From positions 1-64,000 of IMG/VR virus record IMGVR_UViG_3300034062_004313: DNA of 64,000 nt; one strand, 5' to 3'. The notes under the pieces are model-generated. The model ran no database searches. It worked only from the letters and a program-made list of their open reading frames with translations, and was not told the origin of the DNA. The translations under genes and the position numbers were made by a program. Every line of letters starts with the position of its first letter. Positions within the stretch are counted from its first letter, which is position 1. Below are positions 12,143 through 30,969 of this stretch, one piece after another. The DNA is from a virus.

Positions 12143-12382
12143 TTATTCTTCTATTTCATTTATAATTTCTAATGTTTCTCCTTTTTTACCAGCATTATAA
12201 GCCATTACTAACATAGTATCAATCCATAATGCATCTGATAAATCTCTTGCTAAACAATTATCCTCTGGTTCTCCATGACCAAAAGAGACACTTTTACTAC
12301 CTTCAAATGTTTCAAGCTCTATTTCTATAGAACCTTCATACATAAAATCTCCATTCTCATACTTAGTTTTTATTATTTTCAT
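12143..12382 (-). CDS. Hypothetical protein
   Basis: 79 aa ORF; ATGA overlap with the stop of exon 2. Confidence 0.65.
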   Translation of the reverse strand: MKIIKTKYENGDFMYEGSIEIELETFEGSKSVSFGHGEPEDNCLARDLSDALWIDTMLVMAYNAGKKGETLEIINEIEE

Positions 12383-14203
12383 ATTAAATCTTTTAGTGAA
12401 TAAATTCTACGATACCCTACTTCATAACGTTGATTATGTGGAGCATCAAATAAAAATGTACATATTCCTGCATTATTAAGTTCTACAAAGTTTTCATATC
12501 TCTATGTGTTACCACAAAGGTTTTTTATCCTTTGTTTCTACAGTTTTATATATAGCTGTAGTCCAGACTATCTCTTCGTCCTATTTTTAGGCGTTCCCCC
12601 GCTTTCTTGGTAGATTTTATTGTCCGTTCTGGACTCACTACTAGTCGTTAGGCATTTATGAATATTCCTATTCAATTTAGCACGGGATTGTCCTTTTCAC
12701 TAAGGAGTTTCCCCGTTTAACGGAGTTTAACGATGACAGATTGTGTAATTTATATGTCATACATTTTGGAAAAAATTCTTTTATTAATTTGGTAAAAATT
12801 TTTTTACTTCTAGCTGCAATTAGTATTTCATTTTCAGAGTTAAAACTACATTCAATATTAAATGTTAATAACCAGTTTTTTAAAACTATTAAATCTTTTA
12901 TGTCAAAACAATTAGTAGAAATTTTATAAGAATATTGAGTTTTAGAACCATCATCCATAAACCAAATAGCTAAAGCTAAAGGAGATAATTTATCTAAGTA
13001 TTCTTTTGATACTACTTTTTTATTATTAACATAAAATTTATTTACAATATCGTTTAGCACTGGATTAGTTCCAATTTTACAAAAATATTGTTGATAAAAT
13101 CTGTTACTTCTTTTATCAATTTTATTATGTATTGTAGGTTTAGAACATAATCTTTTTAATAAATTATATTTATAATCTACATATTCTGAATGTTCTAATT
13201 TATGTGTAAAAGAACCACAAGCATTTTTACCTTTTTTAGTATAACCTAACCAGCTATCACCAAGTAAACCCCCAATTAAAACATCTAACTCAGTTTGAGT
13301 TAAAGTTAATTTAGAAGGTCTGTATTTAATATAAATATCGTCAGGTAGTTCAATTTTTCTTATTGTTCTTTGAATAACTTGTGTATTTACATTAAATATT
13401 TTAGCAATATCTGAAGAAGATTTACCTTCTCTTAATAATTCTATTATTTTTTCTTTATCGTATTTCATATAGATATGTTTGTAGTACAATATACTACAAA
13501 AATATCAAATTATCAAATTTATTTTATCATCTACAAACCATTCTATACCACTTTGTTTAGCAACTTCCACCTTTGATTCTCCAAATCCTACACAATACAC
13601 AGGCATAGTAGGAAAACCATTTTTATCTAACCACTCTTTTGTCCATTCTATAGGAATACTTCTTGAAGTTATATAACAGTGAGGTTCGAAGTTTATATCA
13701 GAAGGTTTAGTTTTAACAGGAATACTTAACCAAAACTCTTTATCATCTTTCAATAAATCAAATTTAGATTTAATATCTCTATCAAAATTCCAAGTTTCAG
13801 GAACTTCCAATCTATGATGTTTAGTCCAATGTCCTACCCAATCTGCCAATACTTCATCAATATCTAATCCTATCTTAGGTCTATTTAGATAATTATGTGG
13901 TCTATCATCTCCTTGTGGATATAATTTATAATAAGCTGTAAGAAAGTGTACATTGCAAGCTAAATGAGCAGCATGAAGTTCTCCTGTTTCTTTATCATAA
14001 TCTTCTCCATTTTCAATAGCAGCCAAATGTCTCTTTAGACTACTTATAATCTTGCTCCATGCCATTCCCTTCTCCCAATTCCTCTCGGAATATTTAATAG
14101 CACCCTTAGTTAATACACTAACCATTTGTTCATGTGCAAATGGATTTACTAAATCGTAGCGTAATTTTCCTTCATTGTAGCGTAATCCTTGTTCTTTACT
14201 CAT
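12379..14203 (-). CDS. Spliced DUF5664 (dATP/dGTP diphosphohydrolase-like) + HAD 5'(3')-nucleotidase fusion, join(13526..14203,12379..12501), 266 aa
   Basis: N-terminal GLRYNEGKLRYDL...GAIKYSERNWEKG...ETGELHAAH; HAD motif I LDIDEVL; splicing restores WFVDD|RYENFVELNNAGICTFLFDAPHNQ. Confidence 0.85.
12677..13468 (-). CDS. Intron-encoded LAGLIDADG homing endonuclease with N-terminal HTH
   Basis: LIGGLLGDS and LAIWFMDDG motifs. Likely start is ATG 13468 (the track uses TTG 13489). The 3' end runs into the intron core. Confidence 0.88.
   Translation of the reverse strand: MKYDKEKIIELLREGKSSSDIAKIFNVNTQVIQRTIRKIELPDDIYIKYRPSKLTLTQTELDVLIGGLLGDSWLGYTKKGKNACGSFTHKLEHSEYVDYKYNLLKRLCSKPTIHNKIDKRSNRFYQQYFCKIGTNPVLNDIVNKFYVNNKKVVSKEYLDKLSPLALAIWFMDDGSKTQYSYKISTNCFDIKDLIVLKNWLLTFNIECSFNSENEILIAARSKKIFTKLIKEFFPKCMTYKLHNLSSLNSVKRGNSLVKRTIPC
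13486..13517 (-). promoter_or_regulatory. Intron-internal promoter for the endonuclease gene
   Basis: TTTG-N20-TATATTGT just inside the 5' splice site. Confidence 0.6.
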
Positions 14204-14609
14204 ATTTTTTATATTCTTTTAATTCTAAAATTCTTTCTAATTCATCAAAATGAGAATTTTCTTCATCTTCTTCTGGATATTCATCTTGTTCTAAGAATCT
14301 TTCTGATAATATTCCATCTTCATATTTAACTTGTCCGTATAACAACATTCCATTCTCTTCATATTCTAAATGAAATCCTAAATCATATTCTTTTGCTATA
14401 TCTAATATATCTACAATAGCAGGAGACCATCTAGTAGTAAAATAAATATTCTCTCCATCAACTTGAACATCAAAGAAATAATGTTCTTTTGGTTCTCTAT
14501 CTTTAAAAGAAGTTCCTATATCAGAAGTAGACATTCTTTCAAATTCTTTTAAAACTTCTTCAGTATTTTCTCCTGTAAAATACACGTAATTATTACACCA
14601 ATTTACCAT
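14196..14609 (-). CDS. Hypothetical protein, DUF1281/YubB-like ferredoxin fold
   Basis: MxNWCNN start, FTTRWSP and YEENG motifs. Confidence 0.5.
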   Translation of the reverse strand: MVNWCNNYVYFTGENTEEVLKEFERMSTSDIGTSFKDREPKEHYFFDVQVDGENIYFTTRWSPAIVDILDIAKEYDLGFHLEYEENGMLLYGQVKYEDGILSERFLEQDEYPEEDEENSHFDELERILELKEYKKYE

Positions 14610-28708: not shown

Positions 28709-30969
28709 TTACATTTCAAATTCTTCTAATAAAATTACTTCTTCTAATCTTTTTTCACTGGGTATATTAAACACACTATTACAACTCATACATATAGATT
28801 CATAAGAATCTCCTTGAGTTAAATTTGTACTATTACAACAAGGACATTCATTTATATCTAAACAATCTTGAATATATTCATCATCATCATTAGTAAATGT
28901 AAATTGTTCACAATAATGCCAAGAGTTATATTCTTTTTTAGAAGGAACATCAGATTGAAAATACCAATCATCTATATCATAATTTGATTTGCTCCATTTT
29001 TTATATTGAACATATTCATTCTCGGCTTTATGTTCCCATCTTTTATGAGATAGACTTTCTACTAATTCAAATGCATAATTAACAGCATTTTCAAATTCAG
29101 GAACTATTATTACTTCTTCAGCATAATGTTCATTTATATAGCCTATACTGTAATTAAAAGCACAACAATCTGCTCCTCTTTTAGATAGTTCTCCAACCTT
29201 TTTGTTCAAAATGAGTCGTTAATTCATTCCCGTAAATTAATACAGCTCATAATTTCTTATGAGAACAGACTATATCATCTTCCTAATATTTAGGAAGCTT
29301 TCTATTTTGAATCACTTGATTCTACTCCGCACAACCAGATAGTCGTTGAACCTTCATCCTTTCACTAGGATGCTTGGCTGCTGATTGCCCAATCCTTGTT
29401 TCTTTTACTATACTATAGTCATTGCTGCTACAGAGAGTGTACAAGGCTCTAAGGGGTTTCCAGTCAATTAAGAAAGTACAAAATAAATATTGCTATTTAT
29501 TTGGACATTTGACAAAAATACCTTATATTGTGTATATAAAATATAAATTATGGTTAATAAATTAAATAATTCTGATATTCCTACTCTTATTGAAATGTAC
29601 AATAAAAAAGAAAAAACTGCTACAATTGCTAAGTATTTTAATGTAACAGGTGCTACAATACATAACTATTTAAAAAATAATGTCAATAACTTTGAACCAA
29701 CTTTTTCAAGAAGAAAATATTCAATAAATGATAATTACTTTGAAAAAATAGATACAGAAGATAAAGCTTATTTTTTAGGTCTTTTGTATGCAGATGGAAA
29801 TGTTTATCTTAAAACAAATAGAATAAAATTATCTTTAGTTGAAAAAGATAAAGATATACTAGAAAAATTTAAAAAATTAATAGAAAGTAATAACCCTATT
29901 ACATATTATAATAGAACTAATAAAAATGAAAATTGGCAAAATGTTTATGAATTTGCATTTACATCTAAAAAAGTAACTAATGATTTAATTAAATTAGGTT
30001 GTATTCCTAGAAAAACATATTTTCTTAAATTTCCAACAGAAGAACAAGTTCCAAGCCATCTTATTCATCATTTCATTCGTGGATATTTTGATGGAGATGG
30101 ATGTGTTCTAATTACTAAGAAATATAAAAATTTAAATATCAGATTTGATGGAACTATTGAGTTCCTTAGTTCTTTACAACAATATATCTCTACAAAATTA
30201 AATTTACCAATAAATAAACTTGGTAAAAGACATAAAGATAGAGTAGATAATATTTATAATCTCTCTTATGGAGGAAATATTCTTTGTAAAAAACTATTTA
30301 ATTTATTTTATAATAACGCTAATTTATATTTAGATAGAAAATATAAAATATTTAAGTCAATTTATCTGTAAACATACAACATTGATAAGCATATCCATAT
30401 TTTTTATTAATGTGTTTTGTTGCTTTTTTAAAATTTTCTGAAACTGTGATTACACCATTTGTTGATTCACTAATATCTCTTTTATATGAATTTCTATCTC
30501 CTTGTATAAGGAAAGAACAATCTTTAAAAAATTGTATATCAGCATTTTTAGAACCTATTGCTCCCACTTCTTCTGATTTAGCAAAAAAACATTTAATATT
30601 ATCAAATTTCTGTAGAGCTAAAAGATTTAACATACAACCTAATTTATCATCTGCTCCTAATCCACATTGTATCATAGCTGTATTATCCATTCCAAATATA
30701 TAATCCTTATTCCAAATAATACTAAAATCTTTAATTTCATCTTGATTTATATCAACATGGGCTACAAAACATGGATATATTTCAGCTTCTCCCTTAGTTA
30801 CATATAAATTACCAAACTTATCCTTCTCAAATGATACACTTTTTATATTGTCAAATATCCAACTCTGAAGAAAGTTTATCATAACATCTTCTTCTTTTGT
30901 TTGAGAATGACTTCTAATTTCTAATAGTTTGTGTAATAACCTGTATTGTTCTTTATCAAATTTATACAT
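28709..30969 (-). CDS. Spliced M28/M20-like Zn peptidase with C-terminal Zn ribbon, join(30364..30969,28709..29197), 364 aa
   Basis: AHVD, GADDKLG, SEEVG, QGDR; splicing restores MFTD|VGELSKRG...NYSIGYINEH; C-terminal CPCC...CMSC. Confidence 0.85.
29198..30363 (-). ncRNA. Group I self-splicing intron 2 (1166 nt) with antisense endonuclease gene in L1
   Basis: 5' exon ends in U, terminal G. P1 is GAU|AAAUUGAC with GUCAAAUGUC (29513-29504). P2 has a GCAA tetraloop (29481-29502). Core P AAUUGACUGGAAAC, Q AAUCAGCAGCC, R GUUCAACGACUA, S AUGAUAUAGUCU. Confidence 0.93.
29500..29531 (+). promoter_or_regulatory. Promoter for the antisense endonuclease gene
   Basis: TTTG-N20-TATATTGT ending 18 nt before ATG 29550. 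Confidence 0.6.
29550..30371 (+). CDS. LAGLIDADG homing endonuclease with N-terminal HTH, antisense to its intron
   Basis: AYFLGLLYADG and HFIRGYFDGDG motifs; the only convincing + strand gene in the 60 kb minus-strand region. Confidence 0.9.
   Translation: MVNKLNNSDIPTLIEMYNKKEKTATIAKYFNVTGATIHNYLKNNVNNFEPTFSRRKYSINDNYFEKIDTEDKAYFLGLLYADGNVYLKTNRIKLSLVEKDKDILEKFKKLIESNNPITYYNRTNKNENWQNVYEFAFTSKKVTNDLIKLGCIPRKTYFLKFPTEEQVPSHLIHHFIRGYFDGDGCVLITKKYKNLNIRFDGTIEFLSSLQQYISTKLNLPINKLGKRHKDRVDNIYNLSYGGNILCKKLFNLFYNNANLYLDRKYKIFKSIYL

Follow-up and report, generated by a model that had tools for sequence, protein, structure and literature searches.

The locus described here raises the question of whether a gene whose listed open reading frame (ORF) breaks off at the catalytic residues of its product is truncated, or whether it is interrupted by an element that could be removed from the message. 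The window, i.e., the whole stretch of 64,000 nucleotides (nt) analyzed, is the first 64 kb of the 155,874-nt IMG/VR virus record IMGVR_UViG_3300034062_004313, which is rated 100% complete. The gene concerned encodes a nucleotidase and lies, according to the ORF list, on the minus strand, as do all features below unless otherwise marked. We propose that it very probably contains a mobile, td-like group I intron, inserted directly after the Asp codons of HAD motif IV. At the level of sequence, our comparisons establish the anatomy of the split gene, the homology and covariation of the intron core, and a series of alleles that carry an endonuclease-bearing intron, carry an ORF-less intron, or are empty.

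An interrupted nucleotidase gene

The ORF seen in the list (14203..13505) would encode 232 amino acids (aa) and is composed of exon 1, six intron codons and a TGA stop; it has this length because the exon-1 frame runs into the TGA at 13507..13505, 21 nt inside the intron. Exon 1 (13526..14203, 226 codons) encodes a PF18909 domain and a HAD domain through motif IV, ending in the residues FVDD, and its 3' end reads ...GUAGAUGAU at 13526. The insert (12502..13525, 1024 nt) begins with AAAAUAAAU... immediately after U13526 and ends with ...ACACAUAG, its last base being G12502. Exon 2 (12379..12501, 40 codons and a TGA), which was located by translation and by alignment with homologues, is not covered by any listed ORF over 12501..12379; its frame-1 translation is RYENFVELNNAGICTFLFDAPHNQRYEVGYRRIYSLKDLI, followed by the stop. 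Excision of 13525..12502 fuses the 226 and 40 codons in frame, giving a protein of 266 aa in which VDD is followed directly by RYENF. The original prediction, which placed the gene at 12379..14203 and the excised segment at 12502-13525 with a 266-aa product, thus held when the exons were translated. Both junctions could be shifted by one base, because the intron and exon 2 each begin with A; the junction given is the sole option that obeys the rule of a U at the end of exon 1 (U13526) and a G at the end of the intron (G12502).

A protein search with the 232-aa ORF returned 2356 candidates, 2267 of them at E ≤ 0.001, and most of the best 120 homologues were 263-278 aa long. In the eight homologues that were fetched, [FY][VI]DD was always present, and the next residues were R[YF]ENF in all but one, which had GFHNF. 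In BLASTP alignments with the intronless homologue P0002 (265 aa), exon 1 matched residues 2-226 with 201 of 225 identical, and exon 2 matched residues 226-265 with 36 of 40 identical (E = 5e-27), so that at the junction between VDD and RYENF no residue was missing or duplicated. Of 24 related IMG/VR loci, 22 were uninterrupted as judged by span and by high-scoring segment pairs. In 19 of these 22, VDD followed by R[YF][ED]NF was read directly by a script, the remaining three not being caught by its regular expression. It had been expected that homologues would continue with RYENF-like residues after VDD, and both the P0002 alignment and the 19 loci read directly agree. Only two of the 24 loci (L017 and L018) carried an insert.

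Exon 2 could also be compared between the window and the other intron-bearing lineage. Among its 40 codons, 10 differed by synonymous changes only and 7 by changes that altered the amino acid. Within the first 26 codons there was no change in the protein between the intron-bearing lineages, which argues that exon 2 is still translated. The pattern shows purifying selection on exon 2 within these lineages.

A free-standing endonuclease cassette flanked by two separately translated gene pieces, or an intein, would also leave the halves of the gene separated by an endonuclease ORF, although nothing more than that layout favors either. At the junction, exon 2 lacks a start codon, stop codons (TGA 13507..13505) interrupt the exon frame within the insert, and a complete, covarying group I core (described below) ends exactly at the junction. 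We therefore regard the idea that there is no intron at all as scarcely credible. Contigs from three further DNA runs spanned both intron-exon junctions with no differences (X7 record 8 and X9 record 22 bridging the 3' junction, and X8 record 16 the 5' junction), and no intron-skipping joint was present among the contigs of four DNA runs. The stretch, or part of it, is contained in 16 DNA runs from lake or freshwater metagenomes, seven of which hold half or more of the sampled words.

The N-terminal domain of the host protein is PF18909 (residues 4-101; 102.2 bits versus a cut-off of 27). The original prediction had called the protein DUF5664-HAD; both domains were borne out, whereas the name DUF5664 has been superseded by dGTP_diPhyd_N. 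The HAD residues D113, D115, T178, K210, D224 and D225 do not vary among 39 homologues. Matches to NT5C (PF06941, cut-off 24.8 bits) were weak, i.e., 19.0 bits for P0002, 25.2 for P0022 and 25.9 for P0106, and Pfam gave no NT5C match on the truncated 232-aa ORF of the window. PDB sequence searches with P0002 and with a profile of the 39 sequences yielded no significant match. In an AlphaFold model of P0002 (pLDDT 85.3), the strand formed by residues 221-224 ends at the DD, and the top PDB fold match was 3bwv, a deoxyribonucleotidase-like structure (E = 1.7e-6; TM 0.63 on the target), with the mitochondrial (mdN) and cytosolic (cdN) 5'(3')-deoxyribonucleotidases next in rank. Taken together, the invariant DD, the strand that ends there and the deoxyribonucleotidase fold matches place the intron directly after HAD motif IV, in agreement with the claim that the gene is split at its catalytic DD. 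The host product is predicted to be a fused dNTP-diphosphohydrolase-like/HAD 5'(3')-deoxyribonucleotidase-like protein.

The stop codon of exon 2 shares the sequence ATGA (12382..12379) with the ATG of the next gene (79 aa), an overlap that may couple translation of the next gene to that of the spliced message. Neighbors of the nucleotidase gene include those for a ribonucleotide reductase large subunit, a DNA polymerase, a RIIA-like protein and a helicase. The PolA encoded by the same genome is closest to those of uncultured crAss-like phages (27% identity, E = 4e-38), which suggests a crAss affiliation for this 156-kb lake phage genome.

A td-like group I core

Over 12500-12724 the G+C content is 0.39-0.41, versus 0.18-0.30 in the endonuclease ORF that the intron carries. 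A megablast search of 12300-14300 against phages gave no match. A blastn search with 12745..12502 matched 297 phage records; the matches included one (H37) in a T4-like phage, directly downstream of thymidylate synthase exon 1, and one within the Twort terminase gene, in its intron region. Using a 20-nt core pattern we obtained 19 IMG/VR loci (L029-L047), and the core alignment comprised the window and 11 of these (12 sequences). Omitted were L038, L039, L042, L043, L045 and L046, which are duplicates or near-duplicates of rows included, L030, in which an ORF interrupts the core after P7, and L040, which is divergent.

Unaided, RNAalifold recovered P3, P4, P5, P6, P7.1 and P9.1 from this alignment, and 18 of the 36 pairs carried a compensatory change. 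For the pair counts we used a hand-drawn structure that also includes the P7 pseudoknot, P8 and P9. In the full structure 92.1% of the 633 cells could pair, versus 33.8-46.5% when the partners were slid by 1-3 columns; both sides had changed in 29 of 57 pairs, and none of 500 shuffles reached any of five measures. In P7.1, both sides changed in all four pairs. P7 does not vary among the 12 sequences, and covariation therefore neither supports nor contradicts it. When the sequences were folded separately, nine of the 12 formed P8, P9 and P9.1 hairpins that differed in their letters; in L033, L047 and L041 the P9 segment was wrongly cut by the pattern, so that only P8 is shown. Against a covariance model of the family (R1), a T4-like td intron matched the model from end to end with 84.5 bits, and two Twort introns reached 71.4 and 60.4 bits.

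In the window the core helices are all intact. P3 (12725..12720 with 12602..12597) encloses P4 (12716..12711 with 12687..12682), P5 (12706..12702 with 12695..12691), P6 (12681..12680 with 12653..12652, and 12674..12669 with 12664..12659), the 5' strand of P7 (12646..12642), P7.1 (12641..12638 with 12613..12610) and P7.2 (12634..12631 with 12625..12622). P8 (12593..12588 with 12583..12577, with one A bulged) is followed by J8/7 and then by the 3' strand of P7 (UAGUC, 12570..12566), which forms the pseudoknot with the 5' strand. P9 (12561..12556 with 12543..12538) and P9.1 (12535..12529 with 12520..12514), both supported by the separate folds and the pair counts, lead to the terminal G12502, after which exon 2 begins as fixed by the protein alignment.

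An Infernal search with a group I model had been proposed as a check. Over 281 nt (12480-12760), the full RF00028 model matched 12756..12545 with 31.4 bits (E = 1.6e-6), although this lies under the curated gathering threshold of 50 bits. The claim of a group I core was sustained by this match together with the covariation and the homology to the td and Twort introns. That homology, the covarying core and the presence of P7.1 and P7.2 identify the core as that of a td-type phage intron. The td intron belongs to group IA2, and by homology the intron in the nucleotidase gene is a member of the td-like (IA2-type) phage lineage.

A guide sequence within an endonuclease gene

The endonuclease ORF (12677..13468) occupies the P1 loop and would encode a homing endonuclease of 263 aa, with an N-terminal helix-turn-helix (HTH) segment and a double-motif LAGLIDADG_2 domain resembling I-SceI. 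Its AUG lies 58 nt into the intron. PF03161 (LAGLIDADG_2) matched residues 62-213 (E = 3.3e-34; 118.7 bits versus a cut-off of 25), residues 2-40 gave weak HTH matches, and both LAGLIDADG motifs (LIGGLLGDSWL and LAIWFMDDGS) are present. The closest solved relative is I-SceI (3oor_A; E = 9.5e-14, query 48-246 versus chain 23-231), and the nearest phage relatives, in Bacteroides crAss phages, are only 30% identical. When viral contigs were searched for the endonuclease, 15 pattern stretches matched, none of which was confirmed.

The internal guide sequence (12732..12741) consists of AUCU, for P10, and GUCAUC, for P1. GUCAUC (12737..12732) is complementary to GAUGAU at the end of exon 1, with U13526 opposite G12737 as the G.U pair at the splice site, and AUCU (12741..12738) pairs with AGAU at the start of exon 2 in a P10 of 4 bp. 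A terminal G and a guide sequence pairing with both exons had been noticed at the outset, with the guide about 780 nt downstream of the 5' splice site and inside the last codons of the endonuclease gene. These features were all found, the guide beginning 788 nt after the splice site. AUCU and GUCAUC fall within codons 243-246 of the 263 in the endonuclease ORF (13468..12677), the guide corresponding to codons 244-246, where the protein can still be aligned with I-SceI. From codon 243 to the stop (21 codons) the ORF shares its sequence with P10, the guide, P3, P4, P5 and the start of P6, and the last 17 residues represent read-through into P3-P5. A ribosome finishing the endonuclease ORF would thus cover the guide and P3-P5, so that on any one RNA translation and folding of the ribozyme should exclude each other.

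From this arrangement we infer splicing and catalysis, homing, and the mutual exclusion of translation and folding. In the pre-mRNA, GUCAUC (12737..12732) would reach over the 788 nt of the P1 loop to pair with GAUGAU, the last six bases of exon 1. Free guanosine held in P7 would then attack after U13526, AUCU would align exon 2 via P10, and the 3'-OH of exon 1 would attack after G12502, ligating GUAGAUGAU to AGAUAUGAA and creating an ORF of 266 aa. Translated from the AUG of its own ORF, the endonuclease would cut the intronless alleles of co-infecting relatives near the point where GTAGATGAT meets AGATATGAA, and repair of the cut allele would copy the intron in, i.e., homing.

Several observations weigh against this reading. 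P1 has only 6 bp and must close a loop of 788 nt, and an extra helix that might close the loop was not above chance (duplex -13.1 kcal/mol; shuffle mean -12.3, with 36% of shuffles equaling it). Five other upstream hexamers are able to pair with the guide sequence, and a GAUGAU within the endonuclease ORF (12955..12950) lies only 212 nt from it. P2 is absent, the guide being separated from P3 by just 6 nt (GUUAAA), and the P7.2 of the window, a shortened version of a hairpin that is longer in other family members, is not common to the family (27% of cells paired). The RF00028 score is below its curated cut-off, and the intron was not reported in Rfam scans of the whole window, of 12300-13700 or of the whole genome; when 12300-13700 was scanned by E-value, the only matches were two spurious miRNAs. 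RF00028 expects a local P1 and a P2, neither of which is present in the window intron. The runs that contain the stretch are DNA runs, with no RNA run on record among them. Among the relatives, a canonical P1 with a U.G pair was not found for L032 or L034 (the latter an intron in a DnaB-like helicase gene), and hand inspection did not yield a clean junction for either.

The GAUGAU at 12955..12950 corresponds to the FMDDG codons of the second LAGLIDADG motif and might serve as a cryptic 5' splice site; L035 and L037 show the same coincidence.

Should the ribozyme have lost its ability to splice, perhaps owing to the 788 nt that P1 must span, the element would be an inactive relic, and the product of the gene would be the 232-aa protein, with its diphosphohydrolase-like domain and all four HAD motifs, minus the last 40 residues. 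The low Rfam score, the short P1 with competing GAUGAU sites, the chance-level closing helix and the lack of an RNA run on record would all fit. However, exon 2 is intact, in frame and as similar to its intronless homologue as noted above, and its codons have changed between intron lineages in the manner described (10 synonymous-only versus 7 amino-acid-changing, the first 26 unchanged in protein). In addition, every core helix and the endonuclease ORF are intact, and the same architecture is seen in six or more other introns whose exon/guide pairs are different. We consider a relic to be very improbable.

The long loop, the 6-bp P1 and the undetected closing helix would also be expected if splicing were not autonomous, the 5' splice site being brought to the guide by a helper, namely the LAGLIDADG protein in the role of a maturase, an RNA chaperone of the host, or a ribosome stalled at the TGA. 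In that case the efficiency of splicing would set the ratio of the 232-aa to the 266-aa form. There are precedents, in that LAGLIDADG proteins serve as maturases for a bacterial group I intron and the introns of T4 are aided by host factors, as described in passages of a review (PMC3984707). Bearing on this is an ORF-less allele (L017:3676-3943, 268 nt), inserted at the same codon and found also in L018; in these two loci the host protein is 86% identical. The L017 intron keeps the last ~30 nt of the endonuclease ORF (...KCMKYKLHNLSS), and the GAUGAU/GUCAUC pairing is retained across a gap of 32 nt, so that P1 takes the form of an ordinary hairpin. The L017 core matches that of the window at 195 of 243 positions, with compensatory changes in P3, P5, P6, P7.1, P8, P9 and P9.1. 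Since L017 has lost the protein and its host ORF is nevertheless intact, the ORF-less form of the intron needs no protein of its own, which argues against a maturase, although P1 in L017 is a local hairpin. We judge assisted splicing to be unlikely, and retain as our preferred reading a mobile td-like intron whose guide finds the exon across the endonuclease gene.

The endonuclease gene showed no promoter signal: TAnnTTTG was not enriched (120 versus 111.7 expected), and sigma-70-like sites numbered 8 versus 14.4 expected. The minimum free energy fold contains a hairpin of 9 bp (13478..13500; UUUGUAGUA paired perfectly with UACUACAAA, 5-nt loop) that ends 9 nt before the endonuclease ATG. An Rfam match of this hairpin to mir-190 was considered spurious, and by eye no conservation of it was seen in other ORF-bearing family members.

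Related introns and known systems

Among the family loci, nine stop-to-stop ORFs end at or in the guide region. Five of these encode LAGLIDADG_2 proteins (L032, L035, L037, L044 and L047), one encodes a GIY-YIG protein (L029) and one has no family (L031); the remaining two are host exons, for NrdD (L040) and the DnaB-like helicase (L034). In 10 of the 12 aligned sequences, a hexamer ending in U and able to pair with the aligned guide was present at the break in the upstream ORF, at a distance of 693-1212 nt in ORF-bearing introns and 32-82 nt in ORF-less ones. The eight exon/guide pairs were GAUGAU/GUCAUC, GACGAU/GUCGUC, GACGAU/GUUGUC, GAGGAU/GUUCUC, GUCGCU/GGCGAC, UUGGAU/GUCCAA, CUCAAU/GUUGAG and AUCAGU/GCUGAU, the 5' splice sites of the other members being placed by guide complementarity at the upstream-ORF break only, and not by intronless homologues. 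Judged from these loci, an endonuclease in the P1 loop is a trait of the family, with at least six other introns sharing the layout. Because it is common to the whole phage intron family, the arrangement is less singular than the original prediction had supposed.

The C-terminal tails of the endonucleases are encoded in different frames of the core, reading ...SVKRGNS... in the window versus ...TPLNGETP... in L032, L031 and L035, and their stop codons vary in position from 24 to 69 nt past the start of the core pattern (L031, L032, L035, L041, and the window at 12677-12737). The use of different frames argues that the overlap between ORF and core has been shaped by the RNA and not by the protein. 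On this comparison, the tails are by-products of the RNA sequence.

In another member (L030:1-1621), P3-P7 are almost identical to those of the window, and the start of a LAGLIDADG-like ORF (...LGDGH...) lies just after P7. Since this ORF is not in the P1 loop, the endonuclease gene occupies different loops within one intron family.

Similar hexamers precede the insertion sites of several family members: GAYGAU, usually the Asp-Asp codons of catalytic motifs, in the window, L033, L035, L037 and L041, and GAGGAU in L047. This likeness may stem either from a common origin of the guide or from reverse splicing as the means of spread; the recurrence of the hexamers would fit guide-directed reverse splicing into new genes better than retargeting of the endonuclease alone. 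More broadly, these introns might form an undescribed family of aquatic phages, in which an ancestral P1-loop endonuclease reads through the guide and P3-P5, translation and recognition of the 5' splice site act as a switch, and reverse splicing provides the means of spread. We put this forward tentatively, as a rather unlikely proposal.

A second group I intron in the window (29246-29521, minus strand) matched RF00028 with 80.4 bits, which is above the cut-off. The Rfam gathering scan of the whole window returned no matches, and so missed this intron too. It follows a peptidase-like ORF (30352-30969, minus strand) that covers positions 5-179 of the 342 in the phrog_4191 profile, and an ORF for a LAGLIDADG_3 endonuclease (29550-30371) lies on the opposite, plus strand between the peptidase-like exon and the second core. 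A further ORF at this intron spans 28709-29209 (minus strand).

How does the intron in the nucleotidase gene compare with systems already described? It resembles the td intron of T4, with its endonuclease I-TevI, in its homologous core (84.5 bits with the R1 model), in interrupting a gene of nucleotide metabolism at the codons of a conserved catalytic motif, and in having P7.1 and P7.2 between P7 and the 3' strand of P3. In td the ORF is in the P6 region. The window intron is unlike td in that its endonuclease is of the LAGLIDADG rather than the GIY-YIG type and lies in the P1 loop, in having no P2, and in its host gene. I-SceI, from a group I intron in the yeast mitochondrial 21S rRNA gene, is likewise a monomeric double-motif enzyme, with a similar ...M-x-YKL C-terminal stretch. 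The phage protein differs from it in having an extra N-terminal HTH and a 17-residue tail dictated by the ribozyme, and in being encoded within a protein-coding phage gene.

A further comparison is with the introns of crAss Delta/Zeta phages (Yutin et al., 2021, PMC7886860). According to passages of that paper, group I introns with LAGLIDADG proteins are abundant in crAss-like phages of 145-192 kb; these are large phages of the Bacteroidota type, which the window genome resembles in its size (156 kb) and in its PolA and endonuclease. Those introns were, however, detected via protein domains, with MCP, PolB, primase, ATP_43b and TerL as hosts, and the same passages contain no RNA structures, nucleotidase host gene or P1-loop layout. 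Passages on the Twort and Bastillevirinae introns (PMC11878797) describe cores of the IA type with endonucleases in long loops, often with a ribozyme signature on one side of the endonuclease loop only; unlike the window intron, most carry HNH endonucleases, in genes for ribonucleotide reductase, DNA polymerase and terminase. Endonuclease genes do occur in the P1 loops of IA1 introns of fungal mitochondria, as passages of PMC4964425 report, and Hypomyces cox3-i2, a group IA intron, has one of the LAGLIDADG type at that position. That example is organellar, with degenerate ORFs, and an overlap of ORF and guide is not described in the passage concerned. Overlap between an endonuclease ORF and the intron core is itself a recognized arrangement in the passages of the 2014 review (PMC3984707), which give GIY-YIG, HNH, PD-(D/E)xK and EDxHD enzymes, and not LAGLIDADG, as usual in phage introns.

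Literature searches for group I introns with a deoxyribonucleotidase or phage nucleotidase found no title or abstract reporting such a host gene, the split-gene supplements of PMC11878797, where one may appear, lying outside the search; a search for an ORF "inserted into P1" likewise found no match. The suggestion that this host gene had not been described as a target was thus consistent with the literature searched. We conclude that the host gene is new as an intron target, and that the P1-loop layout is undescribed for phages and not unprecedented elsewhere.

The annotation of the locus can be corrected, in that the true product would be a two-domain enzyme of 266 aa and not a truncated protein of 232 aa. 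A standard Rfam scan misses introns with an ORF in the P1 loop, and in the window it also missed a second, high-scoring one. A gene for a nucleotide-catabolic fusion (PF18909 and HAD nucleotidase) joins the phage genes that have been invaded at the codons of a catalytic site. Its ORF-bearing, ORF-less and empty alleles would together represent a snapshot of the full homing cycle in uncultured freshwater phages. The intron may also provide a natural test case of how a 6-bp P1 finds its partner across a translated ORF, and of how translation and ribozyme folding are kept apart.

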